Origin: an uncultured Verrucomicrobiae bacterium | GTDB taxonomy: Bacteria; Verrucomicrobiota; Verrucomicrobiia; Chthoniobacterales; UBA10450 | Assembly: GCA_963756875.1 (NCBI GenBank) | Contig: CAVWPA010000003.1 | Coordinates: forward strand, 736,001-800,000 | Length of the DNA stretch: 64,000 nucleotides | Direction: 5' to 3' | In this document: in pieces, positions 16,088-38,025 of the stretch | Position numbering within the stretch: the first letter of the stretch is position 1 | Layout of the letters: the number at the start of each line of letters is the position of its first letter | The notes under the pieces: model-generated | The model's input: only the letters and a program-made list of their open reading frames with translations | The model's database searches: none | What the model was told of the DNA's origin: nothing | Position numbers and translations under genes: made by a program

Positions 16088-16170
16088 TTCGACTCGGCCC
16101 CATGAAGGGCCTCGCTCATGCGACTTGATCCCCAATTTGCCCTAGCTTGGGCGTGGGATTAGGTCCAATT

Positions 16171-17589: not shown

Positions 17590-18618
17590 ATGCAGACGGC
17601 TTTCTTTCAATCTGGCCTTGAACATCCGCATGGCGGTCGCGCACGCGCCATCATCAAAACGCATCCGGAAGTCCGGGAATTGATGGTGCGCAATCCATAC
17701 ACGGCCCTGATCACGCTGTCACTCCTGGTCCTGCAAACAGCGATTGCATACGGGATGGGAAAACTCGGGTTCGGTTACTGGTGGCTCAGCTTGCTGGTGG
17801 CGTATTGCCTGGGCGCGTTCGCCAATCATGCCAACTACGTCATCATTCATGACGCGACGCATAATCTCATTTTGCGGAGCAAAAGCTGGAATAAAATGAT
17901 CGCGATTATCGCCGATCTTCCCAATTTAACGCCCGGTGCCATGGGCTTTCGGGTTTATCATTTAAAGCACCACTCGCATCAGGGTGATTACGAGCACGAT
18001 GCCGACCTGGCAAATCTCTGGGAGGCGCGTCTGGTGAGCAACATTTGGTATCGCAAGGCGCTCTGGTTGATGCTATTCCCGTTTTTCCAGTTGACGCGCC
18101 CTCCGCGTTTGAAGGCGATTACCATGTGGGACAGGTGGTTCGTCGTGAATTTCGTGTGCGTGGCCGCTTATGACACGGCTGTCGTTTATTTCTGCGGCTG
18201 GGCCGGGTTTTTTTATCTTGCGTTGTCGTTTCTTTTCTCGATCGGTCTGCATCCGGTAGGCGCGCGCTGGATCCAGGAGCATTACACGAACGATCCGGAG
18301 CAGGAGACCTACAGTTATTACGGACCAATCAATCGAGTTTGCCTCAACATGGGATACCACAACGAGCATCACGATTTGTCCTCGATTCCCTGGAATAATT
18401 TGCCGAAATTGCGGGCCATGGCGCCGGAGTTCTACGAGAATTTGAAATATCATCCGTCGTGGACCCGTTTGCTTTTTCAATTCATCTTCGACAAGCGCTA
18501 CAGTTTATTCTCGCGCATCGAACGAATGAAACAGCCCGCGCCCGAGGCGCAAGCCGCCCAATCGATTGTCGATCTTGGAGGCCATGAAGTTGTTAACGCG
18601 GAGGCAATCAATGCCTGA
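17590..18618 (+). CDS. Sphingolipid delta4-desaturase/C4-hydroxylase-like (DEGS/DES1 family) membrane desaturase
   Basis: N-terminal PH..R.R.I...HPE...LM, His boxes HDATH, HLKHH, HNEHH, and GLHP...I.EHY...ETYSYYGP.N...N.GYHNEHHD, collinear with DEGS1 as I recall it. Confidence 0.85.
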   Translation: MQTAFFQSGLEHPHGGRARAIIKTHPEVRELMVRNPYTALITLSLLVLQTAIAYGMGKLGFGYWWLSLLVAYCLGAFANHANYVIIHDATHNLILRSKSWNKMIAIIADLPNLTPGAMGFRVYHLKHHSHQGDYEHDADLANLWEARLVSNIWYRKALWLMLFPFFQLTRPPRLKAITMWDRWFVVNFVCVAAYDTAVVYFCGWAGFFYLALSFLFSIGLHPVGARWIQEHYTNDPEQETYSYYGPINRVCLNMGYHNEHHDLSSIPWNNLPKLRAMAPEFYENLKYHPSWTRLLFQFIFDKRYSLFSRIERMKQPAPEAQAAQSIVDLGGHEVVNAEAINA

Positions 18619-19234
18619 ACCGGCGAAACGATTCTACGTTTCGAACAAGAACGAGAGCGTGCCGATGTTCGAAAGTAAGTTCATGGAGTTTTTTTCCCAC
18701 ATCCATCCGGCGACACCGGTGATTTTGTATGTGCCGGTGATCGTTTACCTGCTCTACCGCGCGCTCGCGCCGGGGCAAATGCCGATCCTGGCGGTGATGG
18801 TGCTTTTCCTGATTGGCGTCCTCATGTGGACGCTGTTGGAGTACATGGTCCACCGTTATGTTTTTCATTACGAACCGAAAAGCCGGCCGGGTAAGGCTTT
18901 GCACTTCATCATTCACGGCGTGCACCATGATTATCCGAACGATGCGAGCCGCCTTGTTTTGCCACCCGTGATTAGTGTCCCGATGGCGGTTCTATTTTAC
19001 TTCTTGTTTGCTTTCACTTTTGGGCAATTTGCCCCGGCCATTTCGGCTGGTTTTGGGACGGGCTACGTTTGCTACGACATGATTCACTACGCTACGCATC
19101 ATTTTCCGATGCGAAGCAGGGTCGGTCTTTGGCTCAAACAGTATCATCTGCGCCATCATTACAAAGACGACGAGGCCGGCTTCGGCGTTAGCTCTCCCCT
19201 GTGGGACTATATTTTTGGGACCACCCGAAAATAG
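18611..19234 (+). CDS. Fatty acid 2-hydroxylase-like (FA2H/Scs7 family) protein, without a cytochrome b5 domain
   Basis: WTLLEY..HR..FH, HG.HH.YP.D..RLV.PP, GYVCYD..H...HH, HL.HHYK...GFGV.S..WD.IFGT. Confidence 0.85.
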   Translation: MPEPAKRFYVSNKNESVPMFESKFMEFFSHIHPATPVILYVPVIVYLLYRALAPGQMPILAVMVLFLIGVLMWTLLEYMVHRYVFHYEPKSRPGKALHFIIHGVHHDYPNDASRLVLPPVISVPMAVLFYFLFAFTFGQFAPAISAGFGTGYVCYDMIHYATHHFPMRSRVGLWLKQYHLRHHYKDDEAGFGVSSPLWDYIFGTTRK

Positions 19235-19291
19235 TCCTGGCCGGCTCAAAATCGAGATGGAAAGGGCCTAAAAAAAGTTGCGACTAAAGCC

Positions 19292-19319
19292 TTGTCGTAA
19301 GCGGCGAAGGCGCTACAAT
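19292..19319 (+). promoter_or_regulatory. Possible sigma70 promoter upstream of the SPT-like operon
   Basis: TTGTCG-16 nt-TACAAT in the intergenic region; weak match only. Confidence 0.3.
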
Positions 19320-19463
19320 AGCTGCCCCGATATGGAACTCTCCGGCACACCAGCTGGTGAGCCTTACATAAGGTATTGAAAACAATTAAGTTACATACAA
19401 GCGATTCCAGAGAGTCCTGCGCCATTAACTGGCGAGCGAAGATTTCGCGACTGGGCTCGCAAG

Positions 19464-20744
19464 ATGGATCAGGAAGGGGAATATCAACCGACGATGAGCC
19501 AGGACCCCTTCAAGCTTAGTCTCAGTAATTTCCTGGCCGCCGAGAGCAGCGATCCGCTGCAGGCTCCGCAAAGTTTCACAAATTGGGTGCGCGAGAGCGC
19601 GTGGGCCCGCGAATTGTACGAGCCCGAACTTCTTGGAACGGCGGACGCGCGCACGACGATCAATTACGATGGCAAGCCGGTCTCGGTTATCAATTTTTGT
19701 TCCTACAACTATCTTGGTCTGGCCAATCACCCGGAGGTTATTGCCGCCGCCCATCAGGCGCTCAGCACCCACGGCCTTGGCGCCTGCGGCGCGCCGATGC
19801 TCTCCGGCATGACCGATCTGCACCGGGAGCTGGAGCGGCGCGTTGCAAAATTTCTCGGGCGTGAAGACGCGATGCTTTTCAACAGCGGGTTCGGAGGGGC
19901 GCTCGGGACAATCTCTGGATTTCTTCGCAAGAGCGACGTCGCCATTCTCGACAATCGATCCCATCTCAGTCTCCGGGACGGCGCGATCCTGTCACGCTGT
20001 CGTACGGAAAAATTTGAACATAACGATCCAGAGTCGCTCGATACCGCGTTGAGCCGGCAACGCAATCGCCGTCAGCTTGTCGTCGTGGAAGGCATCTATT
20101 CCATGGATGGCGATTTCGGAAATCTGCAGGAATTGATCAGCGTCGCAGATTTGCACGGAGCCAGCGTTTTCGTCGACGAAGCGCACTCGATGTTGGGTTG
20201 TGGCGAAAACGGTCGGGGCGCGGCCGAAAAGTTCGGCGTGGAGCATCGGATTCCGCTCATCTACGGGACTTTTTCGAAGGCGTTTGGAGCCCTGGGTGGA
20301 TTCGTGGCCGGCTCGAAGGAGACTCTCCAATACCTGCGCTTTTACGCCCATCCCTACGTTTATTCTTGCGCCTTGCCCCCGGTGGTGGTGGCGGGAATTC
20401 TCAAAGCACTCGAGATCGGCATGCGGCAACCAGAGTTGCGAACACAACTTTGGGAGAATGCCGATTATTTTCATGCGCAACTTCGCGGTCTCGGCATCGA
20501 TACCGGGAAATCGACAACCTATATCATGCCGATCGTGATCGGGGAACGCGAGCGCATGTATCGCCTGGGCCATGAGCTGCGCCGGCGCGGTTTGTGGGTT
20601 GCACCGGTGGATTATCCGGCCGTGCCGTTGAATCGAGTCTGCTTCCGGGCCTGCGTTTCCGCCAAACACACGCGGGCTGACCTCGACGAAGCGCTCAATA
20701 TTCTCGAGGACACGCTGGTTCCGGCTGCGCTCCAAAGCGCCTGA
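19464..20744 (+). CDS. PLP-dependent alpha-oxoamine synthase, probable serine palmitoyltransferase
   Basis: SYNYLGL, EGIYSMDGD, DEAH, GTFSK (PLP lysine). The SPT call rests on GTFSK and on neighbouring sphingolipid genes. Confidence 0.75.
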   Translation: MDQEGEYQPTMSQDPFKLSLSNFLAAESSDPLQAPQSFTNWVRESAWARELYEPELLGTADARTTINYDGKPVSVINFCSYNYLGLANHPEVIAAAHQALSTHGLGACGAPMLSGMTDLHRELERRVAKFLGREDAMLFNSGFGGALGTISGFLRKSDVAILDNRSHLSLRDGAILSRCRTEKFEHNDPESLDTALSRQRNRRQLVVVEGIYSMDGDFGNLQELISVADLHGASVFVDEAHSMLGCGENGRGAAEKFGVEHRIPLIYGTFSKAFGALGGFVAGSKETLQYLRFYAHPYVYSCALPPVVVAGILKALEIGMRQPELRTQLWENADYFHAQLRGLGIDTGKSTTYIMPIVIGERERMYRLGHELRRRGLWVAPVDYPAVPLNRVCFRACVSAKHTRADLDEALNILEDTLVPAALQSA

Positions 20745-20760
20745 AGCAGCGCTTGGCGAG

Positions 20761-21714: not shown

Positions 21715-21718
21715 TTCC

Positions 21719-22846
21719 GTGGCGGAAATTGAAATCTCGCAAGTCAGCTCGCATCGTGACCGCGATGCCTTCATTAAGTTTCCCTGGCGCATCTACCGGA
21801 ATGATCCGGCCTGGGTCCCACCGTTAATTATTGAGCGGAAGGCGTTCCTCGACCGGACGAAGCATCCGTTTTACAAACATGGCGACGCCGCCCTGTTTCT
21901 GGCGAAGCGCAGCGGCGAAATCGTCGGTCGAATCATGGCCAGCGACGATCCGCGTTACAACGCGCTCCACGAAACGAACGTTGGCTGTTTCGGTCTCTTC
22001 GAGTGCATCGACAGTCGCGAGGTCGCGGCCGCCTTGTTCGCGGCCGCGGGTGATTGGCTGCGCGCCCGGGGACGCAGCGAGATGATGGGACCGATCGATT
22101 ACTCGACCAATTATGTTTGCGGGTTACTCATCGACGGATTTCAATATCCGCCCACGATCCTTACCTCACACAATCCGCCCTATTACGCTGGCTTGATCGA
22201 AGGCTGCGGCTTTACGAAAGCCAAAGATTGGTACGCCTGGTGGTTTTCGGAGTTTCCCGCTCCGGCGGAACGGTTGCGGAAGATTGCCGTTGCGCGGGCG
22301 GGAAAAATCGGGGTCAAGATTCGACCGATCAAGGTGAGAAAGATCGAAGACGAAGGCCAACGCATCCGGACGGTTTACAATCAGGCTTGGCAGAAGAATT
22401 GGGGGTTTGTCCCCTTTACAGAAGCTGAATCCGAACACATGGCGAAGGAAATGAAGCCGCTGATTCATCCCAAGGGAACATTGATCGCGGAGATCGGCGA
22501 TGAACCCGTCGGCTTTGTTATCGGTGTGCCGGACATCAACGTCGCATTTCGCCGTATCGATGGTCGACTGACTTGGTTTGGTTTGCCGATTGGCTTGATT
22601 AAGCTGCTTTACTACAGATTGAAAATCCGCACCGGCCGGCTCATTGCGCTTGGTGTTGTGGAAAAGTACCGCCGAGCGGGCATCGCCGAAATGCTTGTCC
22701 TTGCTTTGATGGATGCATCGTTCAAACGCGGGTTTACTGGCGAGTTAAGCATGACGCTCGAAGACAATGTCATGGTCAATCGCTTCATCGAAGCAATGGG
22801 CGCGTCGCGATACAAAACGTATCGAATCTACAGCCGCGCTCTGTGA
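21719..22846 (+). CDS. GNAT N-acyltransferase, bacterial ceramide synthase (bCerS/YghO)-like
   Basis: FIKFPW.IY..DP.WVPPL, G.FG.FEC, GP..YS.N...G.L.DGF, HNPPYY, NWGFVP, LGV...YR..GI, LEDN motifs. Confidence 0.75.
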   Translation: MAEIEISQVSSHRDRDAFIKFPWRIYRNDPAWVPPLIIERKAFLDRTKHPFYKHGDAALFLAKRSGEIVGRIMASDDPRYNALHETNVGCFGLFECIDSREVAAALFAAAGDWLRARGRSEMMGPIDYSTNYVCGLLIDGFQYPPTILTSHNPPYYAGLIEGCGFTKAKDWYAWWFSEFPAPAERLRKIAVARAGKIGVKIRPIKVRKIEDEGQRIRTVYNQAWQKNWGFVPFTEAESEHMAKEMKPLIHPKGTLIAEIGDEPVGFVIGVPDINVAFRRIDGRLTWFGLPIGLIKLLYYRLKIRTGRLIALGVVEKYRRAGIAEMLVLALMDASFKRGFTGELSMTLEDNVMVNRFIEAMGASRYKTYRIYSRAL

Positions 22847-24060
22847 TCAGAGAAACTTCTGCGTTTGTTATCCTGGCTGATGAATCGGCCGACTGGAAAA
22901 TTGCAGGCCTGCGCCAACTGGAACGGCTGGTTCTTGCCATTAATGAATTGCGCGACTCCAGCTCGACGGAAGCGCAGCTCGACATTGTTGTCTTTTGGAA
23001 ACCAGAGATTCCGTCTTCAAAGCGCTGGTTGCCGCGAAGCACGGCGGGTATTCGCCTTTTTGACAATAACAAGCGACAGCCTGATTTCGGTGCGCGTATT
23101 TTATCGACGCGATTGCTAGTTGGCCGCGCTGCTCTCCCGGAGTTCATCGCCAATGTGCCCTGTGTTGGAGCCGTAGCGCCAACCATGGATGAATGCCGGC
23201 TTTGGAAGGAGTCCTGGCATGACTTCGAAGTCGCTTGTCAGCGAGCTCTGACCGGGAAGAAGGTTTCACCAGCCTGGCAATACCTCAATGCTTCGGACGA
23301 AATTCCACGGTCGGAGAAAGCATTTCTCCGTCGAGTTGGAAAACCGCAGGATGGAATTGTCTCGCGTTTCATTAATCGACCGATCTCCCGAACGATCACG
23401 CGCGTTTTACTTCGTTCCCAAATAACTCCGGCTGCGTGGACAATATCGATGCTGGTCGTGCCGGTTGCTGCCTTCTTCGTGCTGCGTCGCGGAGATTACT
23501 TCGCTTTCGTAATCGGTCTCGCCATTTTTCAGTTATACAGCGTTCTGGACGGTTGCGATGGCGAAATTGCGCGGGCCAAGTATTTGGAATCGGAGAAAGG
23601 CGGAAGACTCGATACCTGGACGGATATTTTTGGTGGATTCATTTTCATCTTTGGCCTTGGATATGGCCTGTATCGGAAGCATTCCGGCGCCGCGAACGCC
23701 TGGCATTATGTCACACAAGCGATTGCCTGCGTGCTGCTTATCGGAATCAATGAGTGGCGGTTGCGGGGCCGGAGGAGCGAACGAAATGCTCCGCCGGATG
23801 ATTTGATTCCGACTTTATATCCGCGACATAAGGAGCTGATTCATCATTCGGGAATTCTGTTGCTGGGCGAGAGACTTGTGTGGTGGTTGGTTCAGTTTAC
23901 GAAGAGAGACATCTCCATTTTTGTCTTTTTTCTTCTGGCGATCGTTTCCCGTCCGGAATGGATCCTTCCGCTATGGATCGCCGTGACCGCCGTAGTATTG
24001 GTGCTGGCCGAGATCGCGCGGTGGAAACGTGCGCATTCGTCATTGGGTGGACCCCGATGA
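22843..24060 (+). CDS. CDP-alcohol phosphotransferase, DIPPS-like, with a degenerate N-terminal domain
   Basis: DGIVSRFINRPIS (DIPPS-like) and DGCDGEIARAKYLESEKGGRLDTWTD signature. Confidence 0.85.
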   Translation: MIRETSAFVILADESADWKIAGLRQLERLVLAINELRDSSSTEAQLDIVVFWKPEIPSSKRWLPRSTAGIRLFDNNKRQPDFGARILSTRLLVGRAALPEFIANVPCVGAVAPTMDECRLWKESWHDFEVACQRALTGKKVSPAWQYLNASDEIPRSEKAFLRRVGKPQDGIVSRFINRPISRTITRVLLRSQITPAAWTISMLVVPVAAFFVLRRGDYFAFVIGLAIFQLYSVLDGCDGEIARAKYLESEKGGRLDTWTDIFGGFIFIFGLGYGLYRKHSGAANAWHYVTQAIACVLLIGINEWRLRGRRSERNAPPDDLIPTLYPRHKELIHHSGILLLGERLVWWLVQFTKRDISIFVFFLLAIVSRPEWILPLWIAVTAVVLVLAEIARWKRAHSSLGGPR

Positions 24061-24123
24061 GTAGATTCGGCGTTGGACGGGGGCAGCGTGGCTTGCTACT
24101 ATTCTGACCTTCGTTGTTAGCCT

Positions 24124-25074
24124 ATGGAGTCCACCTTGGCTCAAGATATTGCGCCCGTCTCCCGGCCGATTGGGCCCGGTCTGTCTTTCCGTCTCCGCTA
24201 CAGTCCTTTTTTAGCACAGATGGTGGTGATCCGGCGTTGCAATCTCTCCTGTGGATATTGCTCTGAGTACGACAAATCGAGCGATCCGGTGCCGATCGGA
24301 TTGCTGGAAACCCGGCTGCGCAAGTTGAAGGAACTCGGCACATTCGGCATTTCACTCACTGGTGGCGAACCGACACTGCACCCGGAACTGCCTCGTCTCA
24401 TTCGCATGTGCCGGACCCTGCGTTTCTTTCGCACCGGTATGATTTCAAACGGTTTCTTTTTGCGCCCGGAAATGATTGAAACGCTGAACCAGGCCGGGCT
24501 CCAGGAAATGCAGATTTCGATTGATGGTGTGCATGGCAATGACACAACGCAGAAAGTTCTGAACAACCTCAAGAAACGCCTTCGCTGGCTGCGGGAGCAT
24601 GCCCGTTTTCAAGTTTTCGTTAGCGCGGTCATCGGCGCGTGCCCGCCGGAAGAAGCGGAGGAGGTCGTCTCGTTTGCGACCGAGATGGGCTTCGCCTGGC
24701 GTGTTCTTCTTGTGCATGACGAACATGGTCAGCTCAAACTGAAGAGTGACGAGGTGAAAGCCTTCCGGAGCATCGTGAAAAAACTTCCGAAAAGTTTGAG
24801 GGAGCTTTCCGACTATCGTGAGCGCCTGATCCGTGACGGCACGGCGCCATACAAGTGTCGGGCCGGGAGCCGATATCTTTACATCGATGAATTCGGTAAC
24901 GTGAATTGGTGCTCACAAACCCGTCGCGTTTGGTCCAAGCCCTTGATGGATTATGGGCTGAACGATCTGCGGGAACAGTTCTATCGCTACAAATCCTGTC
25001 ACGCGACCTGCACTCTGGGATGCGTGCGGTCTGCCAGCCAATTGGACAACTGGCGCAAACAATCCGCCGCCTAG
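24124..25074 (+). CDS. Radical SAM protein with a C-terminal Cys-rich (Twitch/SPASM-like) region
   Basis: CNLSCGYC, LTGGEPTLH, ISNG, ISIDG, CRAG...G.V.WC and C...C...C. Confidence 0.9.
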   Translation: MESTLAQDIAPVSRPIGPGLSFRLRYSPFLAQMVVIRRCNLSCGYCSEYDKSSDPVPIGLLETRLRKLKELGTFGISLTGGEPTLHPELPRLIRMCRTLRFFRTGMISNGFFLRPEMIETLNQAGLQEMQISIDGVHGNDTTQKVLNNLKKRLRWLREHARFQVFVSAVIGACPPEEAEEVVSFATEMGFAWRVLLVHDEHGQLKLKSDEVKAFRSIVKKLPKSLRELSDYRERLIRDGTAPYKCRAGSRYLYIDEFGNVNWCSQTRRVWSKPLMDYGLNDLREQFYRYKSCHATCTLGCVRSASQLDNWRKQSAA

Positions 25075-25087
25075 CCGAAAATATTTC

Positions 25088-25867
25088 TTATCGCCGTTCG
25101 GGCAGCGCCTGGGCCCGCGTCTGCAACACCCTGGCCGCTTGCTGGAGCATCTGCGGAGTGTCGACGTCCTGCCACCAAGCATCGCCGATATCCGTGGCGC
25201 GGACCTTTCCGTCGGCAGCCATCAAGCGGACACCGTCAGCCAGGCTGCAATCTCCATTGCTCTTGGCGCGTGCGAGATAATCGAAGATCTGGGCGGGGCA
25301 GACGAACAACCCGGTGTCGATTCCATCGTAATGTCGTAGTTCTTTTCCAATAGCGACAATGCGTTCGCCGCGGGTCTGGACTTTCATCGCATCCGCCAGA
25401 TCGAAAATAGAATCGATTTTTCGGTCGACTGCCAGATTGAGCTGGTCGAGATCGGGACTTTTCAGGAGAAGGTCGATGACGGTCTGGTCAAACAAATGGT
25501 CGCTCATGGTCAAAAGAAACGGAGGTTTGACGTGATGAGCGGCGGCAAGAACCGAGATGCCATTCTGTTTTTGCCACTCGCTATTCTTGATAAAACGCAC
25601 TTCCAGTGCGGGCGGTGCCAATCGACTTACCGCAGCGCTCAAACGTTCGGCCTCAAATCCTACCACGGCATTGATTCTCTTGATTCCGGCCCGGGCCAGG
25701 GCGTCGATCGTGTAGGAAATGAGCGGTCGGCCAAGCAGTGGAACCAACGGCTTCGGGAAGGTCGGATCCGCGCCGCGCAACCGGGAACCGGATCCAGCCA
25801 TCAAAATCACTGCCTCAGTAACCAGCCTCCGTTCGAGCGAAGCGGCCGATCCTGGAAGGCTTGTCAT
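25088..25867 (-). CDS. NTP transferase, inositol-1-phosphate cytidylyltransferase (IPCT)/LicC-like
   Basis: AVILMAG.GSRL, PKPL, MSDH, IDTGLF, WQDVDTP. The ATG overlaps the SDR stop codon. Confidence 0.8.
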   Translation of the reverse strand: MTSLPGSAASLERRLVTEAVILMAGSGSRLRGADPTFPKPLVPLLGRPLISYTIDALARAGIKRINAVVGFEAERLSAAVSRLAPPALEVRFIKNSEWQKQNGISVLAAAHHVKPPFLLTMSDHLFDQTVIDLLLKSPDLDQLNLAVDRKIDSIFDLADAMKVQTRGERIVAIGKELRHYDGIDTGLFVCPAQIFDYLARAKSNGDCSLADGVRLMAADGKVRATDIGDAWWQDVDTPQMLQQAARVLQTRAQALPERR

Positions 25868-26667
25868 ATTCCGTAATACCGCTTCAGGCCCCAAAGGCGA
25901 ACGCGCTGGGGAAGAAATCGAAAGATGAGCGGCGCAATTTTGGATTGAAACGTGTCGCCTACGGTGATGCGCGGGGGTGGATTTGCTGCGTCGATCAACT
26001 TCAGAACATTCTTTGCGACCAGTTCCGGTTCCGGGGCCGCCTTCATGTTGCGATCTACGACGGTCCAGGTCCTAACCACTTTCGCTTCATAGCGCGGATT
26101 GGATTGCGCACTCTTGCTGACTGCATCGTTGAAGGCGGTGCAAATATCGCCGGGCTGGAGATCGACAATGCGCACTCTCGAATCGCCCAGTTCGAGCTGC
26201 ATAGACATGGTGAAGGCTGCCATCGCTGCCTTGGCGGCGTTGTAGGCCGCCATGAATGGAACGGGCAAACGCGAAGCCAGAGACGTCACGTTGACGATGA
26301 GGCCTTCCCCTCGCGCTTGCATCGCGTTGAGGGCCAGACGCATCAACTGCAGGTGTCCGAACACGAGCACCTGAAATTCGCGCGCCGTTTCCTTCGCAGA
26401 AAGATCTTCCGCCGGCCCGAAGTGACCGCTGCCGGCATTGTTGATAACAACATCAAAATGACCGGCTTCCGAAAGCGCGGTTGTAAACGCCTCGTCGATT
26501 GAATGGGAGTCGGACAGATCGAGCCGTACCGCGTGCAAGCGTGGCAGTTGCGGGACGCGACCAGGTTCTCGCGAGGTCCCCCAGATCTCATCTCCACGGT
26601 TGACAAGCGCTTGGGCAATGGCCAGGCCGATTCCGGAACTGGCGCCTGTGAGAAAAATGGGTTTCAT
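25864..26667 (-). CDS. Classical short-chain dehydrogenase/reductase (candidate 3-oxo-sphingoid/oxidised-ceramide reductase)
   Basis: TGASSGIG, NNAG, S...YNAAK catalytic motif. Substrate inferred from context only. Confidence 0.85.
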   Translation of the reverse strand: MKPIFLTGASSGIGLAIAQALVNRGDEIWGTSREPGRVPQLPRLHAVRLDLSDSHSIDEAFTTALSEAGHFDVVINNAGSGHFGPAEDLSAKETAREFQVLVFGHLQLMRLALNAMQARGEGLIVNVTSLASRLPVPFMAAYNAAKAAMAAFTMSMQLELGDSRVRIVDLQPGDICTAFNDAVSKSAQSNPRYEAKVVRTWTVVDRNMKAAPEPELVAKNVLKLIDAANPPPRITVGDTFQSKIAPLIFRFLPQRVRLWGLKRYYGI

Positions 26668-28190: not shown

Positions 28191-28280
28191 CTTCCCACCG
28201 AATCTTCTCGATGCGAGCCGATTCGACAAGGTGGAATGATGTAGCGGCAGCCATAGCGGAATGCGCTATAATCAACGTCC

Positions 28281-29654
28281 TTGATTGCGAGTTTACGCCG
28301 CTGGGCCAGTCTTACTCTTAGCCGTGGTTCGCCCCGAGATGGTCGCGAGCGGCGGTCGCGCGGTGTTTTTCGGGTAATGCGTCCGCTTTGGTCGGCCGGC
28401 TTCTGGCGATTCTTGTCACCATCGTCTCGGTCCCGCTCACGGTTGGATATCTGGGGAGTGAACGCTACGGCGCATGGGTGACGATTGTAAGCGTTCTCAC
28501 ATTTCTGAGTATTACCGATGCGGGTCTGGCTGCCAGTCTTACAAACGCGCTGGCCAAGGCTCAAGCCGAAGACGCGCGCGATGTCGGCCAGCGTTACGTT
28601 TCGTCCGCTTTCTTTACATTGTCGTTAATTGCGGTGGTCATTCTCATTTTCGGCAATGCACTCGCGCCGCAGATTTCGGCATTTTTGTTTCCAAGTCTGC
28701 AATCCCCAGCCGCGCGCCCTGAAATCGTTACCGCAGTAAGGGCCGCGCTGTCGATCTTCGCGCTGAATCTTCCGTTTCTGGTCAATGCTCGTGTGCTGGC
28801 CGCGCATCAAGAAAGCGCACTGGCCAACCTTTGGAACGTAGCAGGAACCGTCGGCAATCTCGGCGCTATCTCGCTGTTATCTGGTTTCGAGGCAGCCTTC
28901 CATGGCTTATCTTGGGCTGCTTCGGCTTCGGATTGCTGACGAACATCATTTGCGCCATCTGGTTGTTCGGGTTTCACAAGCCGTGGCTGCGGCCGGGGGC
29001 TGCCGGCGTCGCGCCGGCCTTTATCAAATCCCTTCTTTCCGATGGTTGGAAATTTTTCGTAATCGGCATCGGCTGGATGATCAACTGGCAAACGGACAAC
29101 GTGGTCATCGCGCACTTTCTGGACGTGGCGCAGGTGACCCCATATGCTGTCACGTTCAGCCTCTTTGCGCTGGCAACCGGGTTGCAAGCGCTTGCCTATC
29201 AATCGCTTTGGCCGGCTTACACCGAGGCATTCGCGCAACGCGACTACGCTTGGATCCGCCAGACCTTGCGCTCGAATTTCAAATTCAGCTTCATTACCAC
29301 GATTGCAATTCTCGGCACGCTTACGATTTTTGGCAGCGACATCATCCGGCTCTGGGCGGGCCCGATCGCAGTGCCACCATTTTCAGTGATTGTCTGGATG
29401 GCCGTCTGGCGGCTGATGTTATCGACGCTCATGGTCGGGGTTGCCTTCTCAATGCGACCGGACATCTGAAAGGCATGACGATTTACGGCAGTGTCACCGC
29501 AGTCTTAAACCTCATCTTATCGATCTTACTGGCCAAGAGGTACGGCATTACTGGTGTCATCGCCGGGACAGCCATCGCCTACGCCGTCGCCAGCTACATC
29601 CCAACGTTTTTGGAAGTGAGAAGCGTGCTGCGAAAGTGTTGTCCCTCTGAATGA
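28281..29654 (+). CDS. Wzx/MATE-like polysaccharide flippase, broken by about 3 single-base frameshifts (~28370, ~28870, ~29437)
   Basis: VPLTVGYLGSERYGAW, TDNVVIAHFL...VTPY, NLILSILL...YGITGV pieces in successive frames. Confidence 0.75.
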
Positions 29655-30860: not shown

Positions 30861-31566
30861 GATGCGCTGGCCATGTGGGTGGCTGCTGATGATGCGGCCG
30901 TCCTGCATCTCGTGAATCCAATCGCACGCTTCGGCGATGGCCGGATTATGGGTAACAAGAAGCAGCGCCTTGTGCCCGCTGTGGCACCAGATCCTGCAAA
31001 AGATCAAAGGCGCGTATGCGAGTTGCTGAGTGTCGAGATTTCCAGTCGGTTCGTCGGCCAGAATGACGCGCGGATCGTTGGCCAGGGCCCGTGCGATCGC
31101 CACCCGCTGTTGTTCGCCGCCGGAAAGATGACGGCTCGGACGTCGTGATCTTGTCCCCGAGATCAACCGCTTCGAGCAGCATCGCGGCGCGATCATTCAT
31201 TTGCGACTCGGTCAGCTGGCCGAGTTGACGCATGGGAATCGTGACATTTTCCTGCGCGCGTGAAATCCTCCATCAAGAAATGGAATTGAAAGATGAAGCC
31301 AATCAGCTTCGTTACGCCTTTGCGCCAATTGATCGTCGGCCATATGCGATACCGGTTCCGATTCAATTTCGACCCAGCCGTTGTCCGGGTGATCGAGCAA
31401 TCCGAGAATATAAAGCAGAGTGCTCTTGCCACAGCCGGACGGACCGACCACGGCGTGAATGCTGCCGGGTTCGAGCTCGAGAGAAACTCCGCGCAGCGCG
31501 TGCACGCGCGATTCCTCTTCGCCGAGGTAACGCTCAATTTCCTCGACAATTCAGACAAAGACTCAT
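30852..31566 (-). CDS. ABC transporter ATP-binding protein (LolD/MacB type), multiply frameshifted
   Basis: [46 protein letters not shown] fragments across frames. Confidence 0.8.
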
Positions 31567-32813
31567 ACGCTCGATCCGCGCAAGGTTGCGACAGGTGGGA
31601 ATTCAGCCGCGCGCCGGGCGGGCACGTAGCTGGCGATGAATACGGCGACGAATCGCGAGCAATGTTGCCCAGACGATAATGCCGCCAATCCCAAATCACC
31701 AAAAAGTGATTGGCATAGATCAACCCGCGAATCCGGATGGGAATCTGCGAAACGCCGCCACGTCATGAGTCGCGCCGAGCAAACAGCCAATCACGGAACC
31801 GGCGACGGCGATGAGCGCGCCCTGCCAGAGGAAAATCGCGCTGATATCGATTCGCCGATACCCCATTGAACGCAAAATTGCGATCTCCCGTAACCTTCGC
31901 CAGGACGACATGGTGAGGACATTGAAAATGCCGAACCCGGCGAGCAAAATGATGAGTGAGACGGTGATGGCGGCGGAAATTCGCAGTGTGAAAAAGATCT
32001 GTAACGTCGATCCTTCGCGCTCCTGCCAACTGAGCGGACATGTGACGGAAAAGCTCTTCAAAATGCCGCGCCAGCGCTGGAGCGCGCTCCGGATCACGCA
32101 GTTTATAAATGATCATGGAGGCGGCGAAGGGCCGGTGCAGCAAACTTTGCGCGACTTTGACGTGTGAATAGACGTCGGGTGGAATCGATCGATCCGACGC
32201 CGCTAGCGGGCAATCGCGGCGACTGTGAAGCGCCAATATTCTCCCGTCGGGAGAGAGCAGTTGAACCGTCTCTCCAACGCCGACATCCAGATGATCGGCC
32301 AGTTGTTCGCCAACAATCACGGCATTTGGGTTGTTTCGAAAGTCGTCATAATTTCCGTCGACCAGTTCCTGGCCGAGATCGCTCGTTTGCAGCTGCAAGG
32401 CCGGGTTAATTCCAAAAAGATCGACCGTTGCGTTTTCAAAACCGGCGCGTGCGCTGACTGTTCCGCGGAGAACCGGCGAGCAAGCAAACCACGTTGGAAA
32501 ACTGACGGCTCACGCGCATGATCTCGCTAGCATCGTCGATCCCCTCGAAATAAAGACGATGCGCGGCGGCCGGGTTGCGATTCTTGGCCGGCCACGACAG
32601 ATCGCTATAGCGAGGACGGAATCGGCTCGCGCATGACCATGGCGCCGTTGCTTCCAATCGTCGAATTGATGAAATGCTTGCGCAAAGCCCTGCGTTTGCG
32701 CCTGAGTGCAGATAAAAATGGCGACCCCGAAAACGACGCCGCTGAGACTGAGAAGAAACGCACGCTTGCGATGCGTAAGAAATCGCAAGCGCAATATAGA
32801 GCGACGGAGTCAC
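31563..32813 (-). CDS. ABC transporter permease (FtsX/LolCE/MacB type), multiply frameshifted
   Basis: LSLSGVVFGVA, GFGIFNVL...REIAILRSMG, ASYVPARRAA...PV..LRG fragments. Confidence 0.75.
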
Positions 32814-33962
32814 TTTGTAGGTTTCGAGGTGGCCACACGACGTTGACGCGCCGGCTGCCCCGGCCGCAGACGATCCTGATCTGCCACAACGACACGATCG
32901 CCTCGGCGAAAGCCCACTGAGGATTTCCGTGAAATCGAGCGTGCGGAATCCAATTTTCACCGTGCGCTTTTGCACGATGCCGTGCTTGATAATCAGCGCC
33001 TGATCCACAAGCAATGCCCGCGTTGGCACCAGGATGGCATTTTCATGTGTGCCGGTAATAATGTTCATTTCTCCTGTCATGCCTGCCATCAAGATTGTCG
33101 GGCGGCTTTTCCAGTTTGCAGGATGATCGTGTAGCGCTGCGTTTCCGGATCCGCCGCCGGTTGAACGGAGGAGACCGTGCGATGAAACTCTGGGTGCGAT
33201 AGGCGTAGAGTTGCACCTTTGCCTTCATTCCCGGCTTTACTTCGCCCACATCTTCTTCGTTTACTTCTCCGCGAACGTAGTTTTTGCGCGACGAAACGGT
33301 GAAGAGGTGGTTGCCTTGCCGACGAATTCGCCATTGATGGTCTGCACCGCGGTGAGGAGACCGTCCATCGGCGCCCGAATCTCCGAGTTCTTCATTTGCG
33401 CCTCCAGTTTTTTGCAGTTTGCGTCCAGGGCTTCAAGATTCCGGTCGCGCTCGATTCGTTCATTTTCAACCGCGCCGTGTAACCGATTGACTTCGCTCTT
33501 CGCTTTTTCGTACTCGACCGCCGGCACATTGCTCAGCGCGGCGAGTTTCTCCAGGCGCTGTAAATTATCCTCCGCCGCTTTGAGCGGCTCGTCCGAAGGA
33601 AGCGGGAGTTTGGCGCGCTCCATCGCCGCCTCAAGGTCCGTTCGCGCCTGCTTCAGTTGTCGCGCGGTCGCCTCGTCGGCGATCACGGCCAGCAACTGGC
33701 CCTTGGTCACGCTTTGCCCAATGGCGCCGCGTCCGGCAGAAAAAGCGTCCGCCAAACGGATAAATCCGGAATTCTGCGCGCGTACATGCACCACAAAAGT
33801 CGGTTCGATCCGCACTGTTCCGTAAACTGCCTCGATGGCCGTGCCCCGGCGCACGGGTGCGACTTCCGCCACCGGCAGCATGAAATAATACGCCAGGAAG
33901 AAAATCAGGGCGAGTAACGCGGCACCGCCCCATAAAACTGTCTTTGATTGCGGCAACTTCAA
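32810..33962 (-). CDS. Efflux RND/MacA-type periplasmic adaptor subunit, frameshifted
   Basis: N-terminal TM, V.KGQLLA, coiled coil, IRAPMDG, GMTGE..I...LVP..AL, V.IG...EILSGL. Confidence 0.8.
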
Positions 33963-33971
33963 CTGCTGGAA

Positions 33972-35309
33972 CTAATGCACGTTTTGCGGGGTGTCGTCGG
34001 AAAATTGAAAATAGCGGCCGGTGGCCCGGTCCCATTCCGCTAGTAAGACATCGTGTTCGTAGGAAGCGTTCAGAAGACCGCTCTTGATTTTGAGCAAGCC
34101 GGTCTCGGCCACCCGATACTCGAGCTCCGACAGAACGCCCGCAGCAAGATTTTGCTGCACCGTGGAAGCGTTTTGTTCCGCGGCGGCCAGTGCCGCGCTG
34201 AGCGACGCTTCCCGCTGCTGGACGGCTTCCAGATTATTATGAATACGGGAGAGCTCGTTGCCGACATTGGCTTCCAGCTTTTTGCAAGTGACCTCGTTTA
34301 TCTCCCGTGCTTTGCGTTGCCTGATCACTGCTCCTGTCACTTTGCCGTTATCGATCACCTGCCAGGTATATTCCGCACCCTCTCGAATTTCCGATGAGAT
34401 AAAATCCTGGTTCCGGCTGGTGGAACCTTCGCGATGAATCCCGGAAACGGGGAGATAATCGCCCGTCACGGTCCCGGTAGCGACAGGGTAGTATCCGGCC
34501 TCGATGATCCGCTGGTCTTCGTTGGCGGCGCGGACAAGTAGTCGGGCGAGCTTGATATCCGCCCGCCGCTTCAGCGCCCCTGCCGTTTCCGCGCGAACAT
34601 CGAAGGCCACCGGCCCAAATTGCAGGTCCCCTTGGGGTTCGGGCAAAGTGGATTCCGGTCCGAGGTCGCTGCCCATCGCCTCTGCCAACTTTAGCTGCGC
34701 CCCGGCGTAACCTCGTTGCGCGCCTCCGATTTGCGAATCCAGTTCGCGAGCTTGCACTGTGGCACCTGTGGCCACGCTGCGGTCGACCAAGCCGGCTTCG
34801 TAACGGCTGTTTTGAGTAGCGGCATTCTCATCGAGACGATGTCGCTGCTCTTCGCGAATGGATTGCAGCCTGCGGTTGTAAAGCGCCATGTAAAATGCCA
34901 GTCGCGTGGCGTGCAGTTGTTCCACGACTGCCACGTTCAACTGTTGCTCCGCGATTAAAACGTCGACATTCCCGAGGCGGACCGATGCCGGAATCGCAGC
35001 GTTAAACAAGGCCTGAGTAAGGGAGCCGCGCGCGAAAGCGAACGCTTTGAACGAACTTTCTCCTGCTCGATGTCCTCCCTGAATGCCGGCCGGCACGCCA
35101 ACTTTTGCGCTTGGCCACACGATGGAGCGGAGGATGAGCCGCTCCCCGGATGCCTGTTCCAGGTTTGCTTTTGCCAGCTGGATGGCGGGATTTTTTTCCA
35201 GTGTCGTTTGCAACACTTGTTCCAATGTCACCGCGCTCGCTGCGGCCAGCATCGAGAGCAAGCAACCGACAGCGACCGCGGTTGTGTAACGACATGAATT
35301 ATTCATCAC
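33972..35309 (-). CDS. TolC family outer-membrane factor
   Basis: Signal peptide, TLEQ.L...LE.NP, RYEAG, R.D...A repeats, terminal RATG. Confidence 0.85.
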   Translation of the reverse strand: MMNNSCRYTTAVAVGCLLSMLAAASAVTLEQVLQTTLEKNPAIQLAKANLEQASGERLILRSIVWPSAKVGVPAGIQGGHRAGESSFKAFAFARGSLTQALFNAAIPASVRLGNVDVLIAEQQLNVAVVEQLHATRLAFYMALYNRRLQSIREEQRHRLDENAATQNSRYEAGLVDRSVATGATVQARELDSQIGGAQRGYAGAQLKLAEAMGSDLGPESTLPEPQGDLQFGPVAFDVRAETAGALKRRADIKLARLLVRAANEDQRIIEAGYYPVATGTVTGDYLPVSGIHREGSTSRNQDFISSEIREGAEYTWQVIDNGKVTGAVIRQRKAREINEVTCKKLEANVGNELSRIHNNLEAVQQREASLSAALAAAEQNASTVQQNLAAGVLSELEYRVAETGLLKIKSGLLNASYEHDVLLAEWDRATGRYFQFSDDTPQNVH

Positions 35310-36736
35310 TGGTTCAATTTTTTAGGCGGACGAGCCACGGCAAGCGCCTGCGCCGCATCGCGATCCTGGCGCGTTTTTTTCGCGTTTGATGGTTCAAAGT
35401 CGAGAGCGTCGGGACTGGTCGCGCACGCATGGGCGAGCCGCGCCAGTGCAATATTGTTTAAATAGATTGCGCTGAGTCGCGTCGTACGGGTTCTGGTGAC
35501 GTCCGAAGCGGCTTGCAAAACATCGAGCTGCGTTCCCAATCCCGCGGCCAGGTTTGCTTTCGCGATTTCCAGGGATTGGTCGGCCGTCGCCACATTTTTC
35601 GTTTCCGATTCGAGAACACGCCCGGCCTGTTGCAGATCGAGAAACGCGCTGCGCACCTCCGACGCGACCGCAAGCCGTGTGGCCCTCAGCATTTGCACCG
35701 CAGCTTCCCGCCGGGCCCGTGTCGCCTGCATGCGCCCTTTCGTGGCAAACCCGTCGAAAAGGTGCCAGGTCGCGTTGACGCCGACGAGATACCCATGATT
35801 GAATTCGGGACCGACCGCGGGATCCCGCTCGCTGTAGACTTCGTAGCCTGAGAAAAGCTGCACGTGCGGACGGAGTTCGCTGCGGTCCACGGTGTATTGT
35901 TGGTCCTCGATCTCAATATCTTTCTCCCGGGCCTTAATTTCGGGCCGTTCCGTGTCGGCGCGCGCCAGGCATTCATTCAAGTCAGGGTGCCCTCCTTCGT
36001 ATTGTAATTGGCCGGCTACTTCAAAGCGCGGTTGGTCCGATTCGGAGCGGAAATCGATTCCGAAAAGTTCGCCTAACCGCAGATACGAATTCTTCAACTG
36101 CGTCTGCGCGTTAACCAGTTCCGGTCTTTCATTGGCGAGCGCGACTTCGGCCCGTTGCACGTTCAACGTCCCCACGATGCCGGCCTGCAACCTCTGCTGT
36201 TGCGTCTTGAGCTCCTCTTCCAGGACGCCCACGGAATCCTGGCGCACGTGTACCTTTGCTCGATTCAGCAGAAGGTCGTAAAACCCGATCCGAACGTCCA
36301 TGGCCACGCGGTTTTTGATTTCTTCCAGCTCGTCGCTCTGTTTCTCGATATTGAGTTCGGCGATTGCCATCTGGCTGGAAACTGCGCCGCCGGTGTAAAC
36401 ATTTTCCAAGGCGCGCACCGAAGCGTTATAGTCTTCGTTTCTGAGACTGGTCTGAGTTTGGGTCTGTCTCTTGTCGGCAAAGCCGGTCGAAACGACCGAT
36501 GGCAGAAAACCGGAGCGCGCTTCGATCAAACCACCGCGCGCCGCTTCAAGTTTTTTGCGGGCGATAACGATCTCCGGGTTCTGCTCTTCCGCCAGAGAAA
36601 CACCCTGGTCGATACTGTAAGTGGTGGCCTCTCCGCTGGCTGCAGGGAGCCAGGAAATGGCCGCGAGCAAGCCAGCGGCAACGTAGGGCCCCCACCGGCC
36701 CCGTCTTATCCCCCATACGGAGCGTTCCTTATGCAC
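35306..36736 (-). CDS. TolC family outer-membrane factor
   Basis: A.EQNPEI, SGFLP, RPEI, W.LFDG, AGLGTQLDVLQA. Confidence 0.88.
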   Translation of the reverse strand: MHKERSVWGIRRGRWGPYVAAGLLAAISWLPAASGEATTYSIDQGVSLAEEQNPEIVIARKKLEAARGGLIEARSGFLPSVVSTGFADKRQTQTQTSLRNEDYNASVRALENVYTGGAVSSQMAIAELNIEKQSDELEEIKNRVAMDVRIGFYDLLLNRAKVHVRQDSVGVLEEELKTQQQRLQAGIVGTLNVQRAEVALANERPELVNAQTQLKNSYLRLGELFGIDFRSESDQPRFEVAGQLQYEGGHPDLNECLARADTERPEIKAREKDIEIEDQQYTVDRSELRPHVQLFSGYEVYSERDPAVGPEFNHGYLVGVNATWHLFDGFATKGRMQATRARREAAVQMLRATRLAVASEVRSAFLDLQQAGRVLESETKNVATADQSLEIAKANLAAGLGTQLDVLQAASDVTRTRTTRLSAIYLNNIALARLAHACATSPDALDFEPSNAKKTRQDRDAAQALAVARPPKKLNQ

Positions 36737-36921
36737 AGAAATCGGTTTTGATTAAATTGTCTTGCATCGTAGCCTCAGCTACGTCACTTTCCACGCTCAA
36801 ATCGATGGGTTTCCCCAACCGGGCGGAGCCTAACATTTTACTTGGTAACCACATTTCCATAACTAATACTTTTTGCATCTTGCCCGAAGCTCATGGCTGT
36901 GGGTAGGATTTCTTTTTCCCA

Positions 36922-38025
36922 ATGAGAAAGATCAGAATCGCCATTGTCGGGGTGGGCAACTGTGCCAGTTCGCTCGTCCAAGGAATAAACTTCTATCGCG
37001 GCTCCTCCGTCAATGGCACTTCTGTCGGACTGATGCATCGCCAGATCGGCCCCTATCGACCGGGCGACATCGAGGTGGTCGCAGCATTTGACATCGATCG
37101 CCGGAAAGTCGGCCTCGACGTCAGCCGGGCCATCTTTGCGCCGCCCAATTGCACGAAAATCTTCTGTGAAAAGGTCAATCTCACGGGGTCCATCGTGAAA
37201 ATGGGTTGCGTATTCGATAGCTTCGCCCCGCATATGGCCGAGCAGGACCCGCTGCGGACCTTCCTGCCGCTGGAAAAGGAGTCCACCCGGGAGCAGATCA
37301 TCGCGGAGCTGAAAGATTCGTGCACTGAGATCATGGTCAATTACCTCCCCGTCGGCTCCGAGGAAGCGACGCGGTTTTACGCCAGCTGCGCGCTCGAGGC
37401 TGGGGTAGCCTTCGTGAATAATATGCCTGTCTTTATTGCGAGCGACCCGGTTTGGGCAAAACGCTTCGCCGATAAAAATTTGCCGGTTGTTGGGGACGAT
37501 ATCAAGGCACAACTCGGCGCGACCGTTCTGCATCGCACCATTGTCGATCTGTTCCGCAAGCGCGGCGTCAAAGTCGAGCGTACCTACCAATTAAATACCG
37601 GCGGAAACACCGATTTTCTGAACATGCTCAGTCGCACGCGGCTGAGTTCCAAAAAAACGTCCAAGACCGAAGCCGTTCAATCGGTCATGGGTGAGCGGCT
37701 TGCCGATGAAAACATTCATATTGGCCCGAGCGACTATGTCCCTTGGCAGCTCGATAACAAGATTGCCTTCATTCGGGTCGAGGGCCGCCTTTTTGGCAAC
37801 GTTCCGATGGAGCTCGACCTCAAGCTTTCGGTCGAAGATTCGCCGAACTCCGCAGGCATTGCCATCGACGCCATCCGCTGCTGCAAGCTGGCGCTCGATC
37901 GCGGGATCGGCGGCGCGTTGCATTCGCCATCCGCTTATTTCGCCAAGCATCCGCCCGTGCAGATGACCGACGACGAGGCCTATCGCTGCGTCGAACAGTT
38001 CATCCGCGGGGACCGCGAAAGCTAA
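36922..38025 (+). CDS. ino1: myo-inositol-1-phosphate synthase
   Basis: AIVGVGNCASSLVQG, NYLPVGS, GDDIK.Q.GAT, YQLNTGGNTDFLNM, SKK.SKT, HIGPSDYV, EDSPNSAG. Confidence 0.95.
   Translation: MRKIRIAIVGVGNCASSLVQGINFYRGSSVNGTSVGLMHRQIGPYRPGDIEVVAAFDIDRRKVGLDVSRAIFAPPNCTKIFCEKVNLTGSIVKMGCVFDSFAPHMAEQDPLRTFLPLEKESTREQIIAELKDSCTEIMVNYLPVGSEEATRFYASCALEAGVAFVNNMPVFIASDPVWAKRFADKNLPVVGDDIKAQLGATVLHRTIVDLFRKRGVKVERTYQLNTGGNTDFLNMLSRTRLSSKKTSKTEAVQSVMGERLADENIHIGPSDYVPWQLDNKIAFIRVEGRLFGNVPMELDLKLSVEDSPNSAGIAIDAIRCCKLALDRGIGGALHSPSAYFAKHPPVQMTDDEAYRCVEQFIRGDRES

Follow-up and report, generated by a model that had tools for sequence, protein, structure and literature searches.

Ceramide synthesis in bacteria has been described for the Proteobacteria, where yghO (ECD_02850) of Escherichia coli B is given as the counterpart of Caulobacter CC_1154, an N-acyltransferase required for dihydroceramide, and where serine palmitoyltransferase (SPT) activity is reported for the E. 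coli B enzyme (both PMC9386255). In the E. coli record, yghO stands beside genes for a fatty acyl-AMP ligase, an NAD-dependent epimerase-family protein, an acyl carrier protein (ACP) as well as a pyridoxal phosphate (PLP) aminotransferase (spt). For inositol-bearing sphingolipids, PMC9246714 sets out an unconfirmed cluster of the B. vulgatus type, composed of an NTP transferase, a CDP-alcohol transferase and a HAD protein and proposed to work via CDP-inositol. Here a locus that brings genes of the ceramide type together with genes of the CDP-inositol type is described from a window of 64,000 nucleotides (contig CAVWPA010000003.1, positions 736,001 to 800,000), of which it occupies positions 17590-38025; all coordinates below are those of the window.

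On balance, and with modest confidence, the locus is predicted to make an inositol-phosphoceramide-type sphingolipid whose head group would come from CDP-inositol, every step of the pathway being drawn from homology and gene order. A product of this kind had been put forward in the original prediction, and all the gene classes named there were found at or near where it had placed them, using the Pfam and NCBIfam profile models from which the domain calls in the window were made.

The host of the locus is a Candidatus Udaeobacter-like genome (Chthoniobacterales, Verrucomicrobiota), and bacteria of this kind dominate many soils. The source genome comprises 2.69 Mb in 3 contigs and is estimated to be 87.6% complete. 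A search with the PLP-dependent alpha-oxoamine synthase (AOS) protein of the locus brought up 80 loci with identities of 82-93%, and almost all came from soil metagenome-assembled genomes (MAGs) whose titles read Candidatus Udaeobacter, Chthoniobacterales, Spartobacteria or Verrucomicrobia, in agreement with the earlier call of a probable Verrucomicrobium. Loci L019, L033 and L034, with an AOS 85-86% identical to that of the window, are filed under Dormiibacterota, Limnocylindria and Terriglobales and are probably mis-binned Udaeobacter contigs.

Conservation was followed in 24 full-length related loci, each spanning 10 kb either side of the AOS gene, and in an order-wide sample of 121 Chthoniobacterales genomes, in which the window's family was set against 109 genomes outside the family. 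The genes on which the prediction draws are the following, given where counted with the number of related loci that retain them:

17590..18618, plus strand: putative DEGS-like sphingolipid desaturase or C4-hydroxylase (DES), 342 aa; Pfam FA_desaturase (PF00487) 90.8 bits; 18/24 loci
18611..19234, plus strand: Scs7/FA2H-like fatty-acyl 2-hydroxylase (FAH); Pfam FA_hydroxylase 74.8 bits; 21/24 loci
19464..20744, plus strand: PLP-dependent AOS, candidate SPT; Aminotran_1_2 179 bits
20761..21714, plus strand: CDP-alcohol phosphotransferase 1 (CPT1), membrane protein; CDP-OH_P_transf 46.4 bits; 21/24 loci
21719..22846, plus strand: GNAT N-acyltransferase of the YghO/CC_1154 (bacterial ceramide synthase, bCerS) family, by homology to YghO; 24/24 loci
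22843..24060, plus strand: CDP-alcohol phosphotransferase 2 (CPT2), DIPPS/AF2299-like; CDP-OH_P_transf; CPT2-like gene in 16/24 loci at E <= 1e-10
24124..25074, plus strand: radical SAM enzyme; Radical_SAM 69.3 bits, CNLSCGYC at residue 39; 5/24 loci, 72-91% identity
25088..25867, minus strand: IPCT-like cytidylyltransferase (NTP transferase), 259 aa, predicted CDP-inositol maker, by match to archaeal IPCT; 23/24 loci
25864..26667, minus strand: classical short-chain dehydrogenase/reductase (SDR), candidate 3-ketodihydrosphingosine reductase; adh_short 143.9 bits; 22/24 loci
26664..28229, minus strand: GT-C fold (PMT_2) membrane glycosyltransferase; PMT_2 29.2 bits, cut-off 26.1; 7/24 loci
36922..38025, plus strand: myo-inositol-1-phosphate synthase (MIPS; gene ino1); Inos-1-P_synth 123.9 bits, cut-off 27

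The core consists of two convergent operons (17590-28229), the plus-strand operon running in the order DES, FAH, AOS, CPT1, GNAT, CPT2 and radical SAM, and the minus-strand operon in the order GT-C, SDR and NTP transferase. The gap between AOS and CPT1 is 16 nt and that between CPT1 and GNAT 4 nt, and the short overlaps of 4-8 nt reported earlier were measured at six junctions: 4 nt at GNAT/CPT2, GT-C/SDR, SDR/NTP transferase, flippase/GT4 and OEP2/OEP1 (the last four genes being listed further below), and 8 nt at DES/FAH, provided that the FAH begins at ATG 18611. The catalytic motifs examined in the core enzymes were all intact. The gene block is real, and its arrangement is not due to chance, the core gene order being found again in 24/24 related loci. 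The related loci are kin and not independent samples, so that the conservation counts show inheritance of a block rather than its repeated assembly. In the order-wide sample, every one of the 11 genomes of the window's family carried the GNAT (64-83% identity), the IPCT-like gene and ino1, while outside the family, among 109 genomes of the order, the IPCT-like gene gave 2 weak matches, ino1 occurred in 13 genomes and distant GNAT homologues (28-37% identity) in 55.

Ceramide-type and head-group genes

The GNAT is the best-anchored piece of the locus. It shares 39% identity with E. coli YghO over 99% of its length (residues 4-375, E 3e-65), which upholds the bCerS-like assignment; the sequence comparison was made with YghO, through which the window GNAT is tied to CC_1154. 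It adjoins the AOS in 24/24 loci of the Udaeobacter clade, and among 71 loci from other phyla (Myxococcota, Planctomycetota, Acidobacteriota, Gemmatimonadota, Ignavibacteria and others), collected with an 8-row GNAT alignment, 51 have a homologue of 38-51% identity next to an AOS. One protein of 780 aa (P0147) is a natural fusion of an AOS domain (57-396) with a YghO-family GNAT (412-780). An Archangium locus carries MMPL and MlaC genes beside its AOS-GNAT pair, without a reductase. A GNAT of the YghO family is also found on a Roseomonas plasmid within a Caulobacter-like phosphosphingolipid cluster. On Roseomonas mucosa plasmid p1-AD2 (L182) the YghO-family GNAT at 13968-15125 is mislabelled 'dATP pyrophosphohydrolase', as in many other Roseomonas plasmid records.

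Two putative tailoring enzymes and a reductase share the operons with the GNAT. The FAH matched yeast Scs7 (PDB 4zr1) with an E value of 7.8e-34, residues 31-219 aligning so that the whole hydroxylase domain was covered, and shows the His motifs HRYVFH, HFIIH, HYATHH and HLRHH; a cytochrome b5 domain was absent from the protein, the alignment covering the hydroxylase part of Scs7 alone. Its start is uncertain (TTG 18566 or ATG 18611), giving a length of 207-222 aa. The DES has a Lipid_DES domain (PF08557) scoring 27.9 bits, above the cut-off of 23, together with the His boxes HDATH, HLKHH and HNEHH, and its start is supported by relatives that align from the same ATG. The earlier FA2H-like and DEGS-like calls are thus both sustained, and the candidate reaction of the DES is predicted to be desaturation or hydroxylation at C4. 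Scs7-like genes were found beside AOS-GNAT pairs in 4/71 of the loci from other phyla, and bacterial clusters of Lipid_DES-bearing desaturases appear in the ESM Atlas (a lead only), indicating that these tailoring enzymes are not peculiar to the Udaeobacter lineage. The SDR carries the motifs TGASSGIG at residue 7 and YNAAK at residue 142; it opens with its nucleotide-binding motif at the very start of the protein and therefore has no signal peptide. In this it is unlike Caulobacter CerR, described as periplasmic and of the epimerase type (PMC11087976), and it resembles the Bacteroides BT_0972 reductase (PMC9278070).

The best three PDB matches of the NTP transferase were all IPCTs, namely 2xme from A. 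fulgidus (87.7 bits, over the full length), 4mnd (87 bits) and 4jd0 (69.1 bits), and its best NCBIfam model was IPCT/DIPPS (128 bits, with a cut-off of 580 that is set for the fused enzyme). This agrees with the IPCT-like label given to it earlier, and the NTP transferase is predicted to make CDP-inositol. CPT2 showed PDB matches to AF2299 (4o6m, 66.2 bits) and to IPCT/DIPPS 4mnd (58.2 bits), scored 79.7 bits on the NCBIfam IPCT/DIPPS model and has the full catalytic motif at residue 236. Its N-terminal domain of ~160 aa has no BLASTP likeness to the NTP transferase, so the idea that it might be a decayed IPCT domain was not supported. CPT1 has the full DxxDGxxAR..G...D...D motif at residue 90, its best PDB match being a weak one to Renibacterium PIP synthase (34.8 bits). 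The ino1 gene, 15 kb away from the core genes in the window, is present in 12/12 family genomes and in 9/12, the source genome among them, lies on the same contig as the GNAT, 13.6-26.7 kb apart. This linkage and the nearness of CPT2 to AF2299 and IPCT/DIPPS are in line with the CDP-inositol-derived head group proposed at the outset. The radical SAM gene is placed between the CDP-inositol-type genes, and its best PDB matches were BlsE (47 bits) and viperin (43 bits), both of which act on cytidine nucleotides or nucleosides; the enzyme might alter the head group or the donor molecule. IPCT-like homologues (36-44% identity) were also found in 56/167 Bacteroidota genomes, a sample that includes the unpublished G304 and G308. 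Fusion to a CPT2-like domain is frequent among them, CPT2 being 28-35% identical to the CPT half of such fusions. Loci L198, L201 and L203 (Bacteroidota genomes G122 and G204) are examples, in which single open reading frames (ORFs) of 478-521 aa hold both domains.

In the proposed pathway, the AOS would join serine and a long-chain acyl thioester to give 3-ketodihydrosphingosine, the cytoplasmic SDR would reduce the keto group, before or after acylation, and the YghO-family GNAT would add the N-acyl chain. This chain would be 2-hydroxylated by the Scs7-like enzyme and C4 of the long-chain base desaturated or hydroxylated by the DEGS-like enzyme, both being di-iron enzymes that would require O2. 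In parallel, ino1 would supply inositol-1-phosphate, which the IPCT-like enzyme would convert to CDP-inositol, and a CDP-alcohol phosphotransferase would then move inositol phosphate onto the C1 hydroxyl of the ceramide. CPT2 is the likelier head-group transferase because it is the DIPPS/AF2299-like copy; CPT1 may carry out the same reaction on another acceptor or add a second phospho-alcohol. In relatives whose copies are intact, the GT4, the flippase and the periplasmic GT-C could possibly add a sugar.

Several findings weigh against an inositol-phosphoceramide product, among them the scores and trees of the AOS given in the next section. The acceptors of CPT1 and CPT2 are not readable from sequence, CPT2 is weakly conserved or replaced in several relatives, and ino1 is unlinked to the GNAT in 3/12 family genomes. 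For the locus proteins, the KdsR, MIPS, SPT and IPCT/DIPPS equivalog models all scored below cut-off, ino1 reaching 438.9 bits on TIGR03450 (cut-off 638). The SDR matched the KdsR model NF049977 over its full length at 163.9 bits, missing the cut-off of 400, and was outscored by a generic NCBIfam oxidoreductase model (183 bits); its earlier assignment as the reductase of a ceramide pathway thus has the match on its side and the cut-off against it. A dedicated ACP or acyl-ACP synthetase was not found in the locus, nor was a PP-binding (ACP) gene in the window, as had already been remarked, the two ACP genes of the genome being located elsewhere. In the Bacteroidota, MIPS accompanied 52/56 genomes with an IPCT-like gene and 97/111 without one, which is chance level. 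As MIPS is nearly everywhere in this sample (149/167 genomes by the Pfam model; 9/167 with the window's MIPS protein as query), its co-occurrence with the IPCT-like gene is informative neither way.

It is unlikely, in our estimate, that a sphingolipid is made with a head group other than inositol phosphate, with phosphoglycerate, glycerol phosphate or ethanolamine phosphate being activated instead and ino1 lying nearby for an unrelated reason. A precedent is given by Caulobacter CpgD, the closest structure to which is IPCT 4JD0 and which yet makes CDP-glycerate (PMC12275187), and which pairs with a CDP-alcohol-type protein acting on ceramide/sphingolipid (PMC11324152); the Roseomonas plasmid carries the same nucleotidyltransferase and CDP-alcohol module beside its GNAT. 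The position of ino1, 11 kb from the IPCT-like gene and behind an unrelated efflux set, and the family genomes in which it is unlinked would also fit. However, the full-length match of the NTP transferase to archaeal IPCT scores 87.7 bits, against 23.5 bits for the Roseomonas protein in the CpgD position, CPT2 matches DIPPS/AF2299 at 58-66 bits against ~29 bits for the protein in the CpgA position, and a cluster-type ino1 (79-92% identity) is present in 10/11 family genomes, which counts against a non-inositol head group.

Also improbable, to a slightly greater degree, is that two pathways share the neighbourhood, one leading to a plain or differently headed ceramide and the other to a separate inositol glycerolipid (BEPIS/PI-like) or to di-myo-inositol phosphate (DIP). 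As these pathways are described, ino1, IPCT and a CDP-alcohol phosphotransferase form the exact set of both the DIP and the R. marinus BEPIS routes; in addition, the best relatives of CPT1 are PIP and archaetidylinositol-phosphate synthases, and no AOS or GNAT was found within 8 kb of the Bacteroidota IPCT-like genes in the six loci inspected. Gene order argues for a single pathway, since within a single operon the two CPT genes alternate with AOS and GNAT, at junctions ranging from a 16-nt gap to a 4-nt overlap, CPT1 keeps its position in 21/24 relatives and the IPCT-like gene and the SDR overlap by 4 nt. The genome, moreover, has only two CDP-alcohol phosphotransferases besides CPT1 and CPT2, and the lineage is, from its record titles, a soil mesophile, whereas DIP is a solute of hyperthermophiles.

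The alpha-oxoamine synthase

The AOS, with the PLP-lysine motif GTFSK at residue 268, matches solved SPT, KBL and BioF structures over its full length, the best PDB match being SPT (3a2b, 262 bits), followed by KBL at 250.6 bits; the PDB cysteate-C-fatty acyltransferase is matched at 202 bits. The genome holds a separate true Kbl (657.7 bits, above the cut-off of 493) and a BioF-like gene (417.6 bits), so that the AOS of the locus is a third paralogue. In a survey of 31 family genomes, unpublished G126 and G129 included, each genome had <=3 AOS genes, and none in these genomes scored >353 bits on the SPT-CFB model.

The AOS misses the curated SPT cut-offs, reaching 316 of 640 bits for NF047600, 312 of 500 bits for NF047599 and 259 of 670 bits for NF047603. 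On the SPT-CFB model it scored 316 bits, compared with 340 bits for a Kbl and 477-571 bits for GNAT-adjacent AOS from other phyla. Quick maximum-likelihood trees were built leaving out rows >560 aa or <300 aa, duplicates (L172-L175) and very long rows (L179, L181), the second tree additionally leaving out L115 and every second Spt-like row. Nine Udaeobacter-clade AOS rows formed one clade (support 100), whose branch measures ~2.1 substitutions per site. In the first tree this clade fell outside a 53-row Spt-like clade (SH-aLRT 99), and in the second outside a 27-row Spt-like clade (96) that takes in the cluster SPTs of E. coli and Roseomonas; in the second tree the Udaeobacter AOS clade, Kbl/BioF (96) and the 27-row clade meet at one node. 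In an approximately unbiased (AU) test, grouping the Udaeobacter AOS with the Spt-like clade versus Kbl/BioF was not rejected (p 0.76), the constrained tree being 7.95 log-likelihood units better. The original prediction had seen a grouping of the AOS with BioF/Kbl as fatal to it; the AOS lies outside Kbl/BioF, but it lies outside the Spt-like clade as well. As a long-branch lineage apart from both, it is a candidate SPT by virtue of its context.

That the AOS is not an SPT, and that the block makes some other N-acylated amino-lipid starting from another amino acid, for example with a 1-deoxy or sulfonolipid-like base, would agree with its long branch outside the clade of the E. coli and Roseomonas SPTs, with scores on SPT models no higher than those of Kbl and with its match to cysteate-C-fatty acyltransferase, but is very unlikely, as the AU test allows the placement with the Spt-like clade, the locus AOS is the sole AOS remaining for the YghO-family GNAT in the 31 family genomes, family descriptions give ceramides as the substrates of Lipid_DES and Scs7-like enzymes in those organisms from which they are known, and the two phosphotransferases of the operon would need a free lipid hydroxyl such as serine supplies.

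Beyond the predicted inositol-phosphoceramide itself, a wider proposal can be offered tentatively, as one that is more doubtful than probable: the Udaeobacter family may make fungus- or plant-like 2-hydroxy, C4-modified (glycosyl)inositol-phosphoceramides by means of a ceramide:CDP-inositol phosphotransferase and of an AOS turned SPT apart from the known Spt clade. Literature searches found no description of the ceramide:CDP-inositol phosphotransferase reaction for any organism.

Neighbouring genes and frame changes

Between the core and ino1 lie genes for a possible glycosylation and export of the lipid:

28272..29654, plus strand: flippase-like (Wzx/MOP-type) membrane gene with three frame changes, aligned to L003
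29651..30860, plus strand: GT4 glycosyltransferase with one frame change in the A5 run 29883-29887; Glycos_transf_1 80.8 bits
30852..31560, minus strand: ABC transporter ATPase with several frame changes; partial ABC_tran match, frame switches relative to the G014 ORF
31569..32813, minus strand: MacB/FtsX-type ABC permease with several frame changes; FtsX and MacB_PCD fragments in different frames
32834..33971, minus strand: membrane-fusion (HlyD-type) protein gene with several frame changes; weak HlyD_D23 match
33972..36736, minus strand: two outer-membrane efflux (TolC-like, OEP) genes, intact; OEP 66.6 and 177 bits

To align with L003, where 464 aa are read in one frame, the flippase-like gene has to pass through frames 3, 2, 1 and 3; it is one ORF in L003 and L043 and gave no Pfam match, so that its name rests on its hydrophobic make-up and on the call made earlier. 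The GT4 gene follows in two frames a 403 aa ORF of G093, where it is intact, and the ABC ATPase, permease and membrane-fusion genes are single-frame in G014, G093 and G101, the membrane-fusion protein having 385-387 aa there. The two OEP genes align end to end with three relatives. The GT-C protein has ~10 hydrophobic segments and no sequence match in the PDB. The in-frame pieces of the broken genes match relatives as closely as their intact neighbours do, and no frame changes were seen at 17.6-28.2 kb or 34.0-41.3 kb of the window. Similarity kept in frame and breaks confined to one region point to a local consensus or assembly fault, or to very recent decay, in the five broken genes (28272-33971). 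When stop-to-stop ORF coverage was computed genome-wide, the test region had a value of 0.78, and 717/2673 windows were as low or lower, so that this measure did not set frame-broken regions apart. The flippase, GT4 and ABC/TolC exporter named in the original prediction are thus present, but five of the genes are broken by frame changes in the source genome, and the ABC/TolC efflux set is tied to the lipid by position alone. Glycosylation and export, advanced there as further steps, are accordingly reduced to guesses.

Other features surround the locus. A KdtA (Kdo transferase) gene and a tRNA-Glu lie just upstream (14551-16087), KdtA neighbouring the cluster in 8/24 relatives, and a phosphofructokinase gene (16147-17379) is a neighbour in 0/24. 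A lipid kinase of the DAGK_cat/YegS type (11530-12393, minus strand) is located 5 kb upstream of the locus and is found upstream of the cluster in 4/24 relatives; ceramide and sphingosine kinases are members of this family. A search against Rfam detected neither a riboswitch nor any other RNA in the locus. Further downstream, a tRNA-Sec (48940-49032, minus strand) adjoins an AIR-synthase-family gene (47763-48752), a family that includes selenophosphate synthetase, and the source genome therefore probably uses selenocysteine.

Relation to known systems

Inositol ceramides of bacteria, the bCerS family, the placing of Scs7-like genes next to AOS-GNAT pairs in bacteria, and lipid routes through CDP-inositol are all already known or proposed. 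What is new here is a ceramide operon, in an abundant soil family, that incorporates a head-group module of the CDP-inositol type together with both tailoring enzymes of eukaryote type, and the aberrant AOS in this locus. The combination had been thought undescribed for the lineage, and literature searches (supplements lying outside their scope) found no papers treating Udaeobacter or Verrucomicrobia sphingolipid genes as their topic; Spt-like proteins of 22 Verrucomicrobiota MAGs are, however, in print (PMC11334938).

Inositol-phosphate ceramides are usually credited to fungi and plants, and if the prediction is true, part of the soil lipids taken as markers of fungi or plants could come from bacteria. 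Udaeobacter-like bacteria offer no culture to analyse, and the locus provides a compact gene set for a putative route from CDP-inositol to ceramide that has so far been guessed at for Bacteroides only. An odd AOS serving as the starter of sphingolipid synthesis would widen the accepted sequence space and affect surveys that define producers by the Spt clade.

Compared with the proteobacterial ceramide cluster (Caulobacter spt/acpR/cerR/aasR/CC_1154; E. coli B yghO), the locus likewise pairs an AOS with a YghO/CC_1154-family GNAT, and in Caulobacter and Roseomonas the head group is reported to be served, as here, by a nucleotidyltransferase and a CDP-alcohol-type enzyme. Unlike that cluster, the locus is without a dedicated ACP, an acyl-ACP synthetase or an epimerase-type CerR; its reductase is a classical SDR lacking a signal peptide and its AOS falls outside the clade of the E. 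coli and Roseomonas SPTs. The head-group enzymes of the window gave only 23.5, 29.3 and 30.4 bits with the Roseomonas plasmid proteins that hold the CpgD and CpgA positions and are therefore not orthologues of the CPG2 module (CpgD, CpgA).

The Bacteroides inositol lipid clusters (BT_1522-1526 and the B. vulgatus type; PMC9246714), likened to the locus by description, share with it a nearby MIPS and a predicted inositol-phospho(dihydro)ceramide, and the Bacteroidota IPCT-like homologues, often fused to a CPT2-like domain, fit the unconfirmed alternative cluster of that paper. In contrast, a PIP phosphatase, a HAD hydrolase and a BT_1522-type synthase were not seen in the locus in Pfam and NCBIfam scans, and its phosphotransferases stand inside the ceramide operon, whereas Bacteroidota ceramide genes are described as dispersed (PMC11334938). 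The Rhodothermus marinus BEPIS system, also compared by description, has the same MIPS, IPCT and inositolphosphotransferase classes, with CDP-inositol as donor to a lipid alcohol and not to a CDP-activated lipid (PMC4587543). Its MIPS-IPCT-BEPIS operon thus gives a precedent for a transfer from CDP-inositol to a lipid alcohol, the acceptor being a dialkylether glycerol there and a predicted ceramide here.

Among solved structures, the NTP transferase and CPT2 are most closely matched by the archaeal/Thermotoga IPCT-DIPPS and AF2299, the latter carrying an N-terminal extension as CPT2 does (~160 aa in CPT2). Unlike in IPCT-DIPPS, the enzyme is split in the locus into two genes on opposite strands, in a lipid-synthesis context and in a soil mesophile. 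Among eukaryotic enzymes, the FAH aligns end to end with the hydroxylase domain of Scs7/FA2H but is without the fused cytochrome b5, and the DES shares with DEGS1/2 the DES-specific N-terminal domain and the three His boxes.

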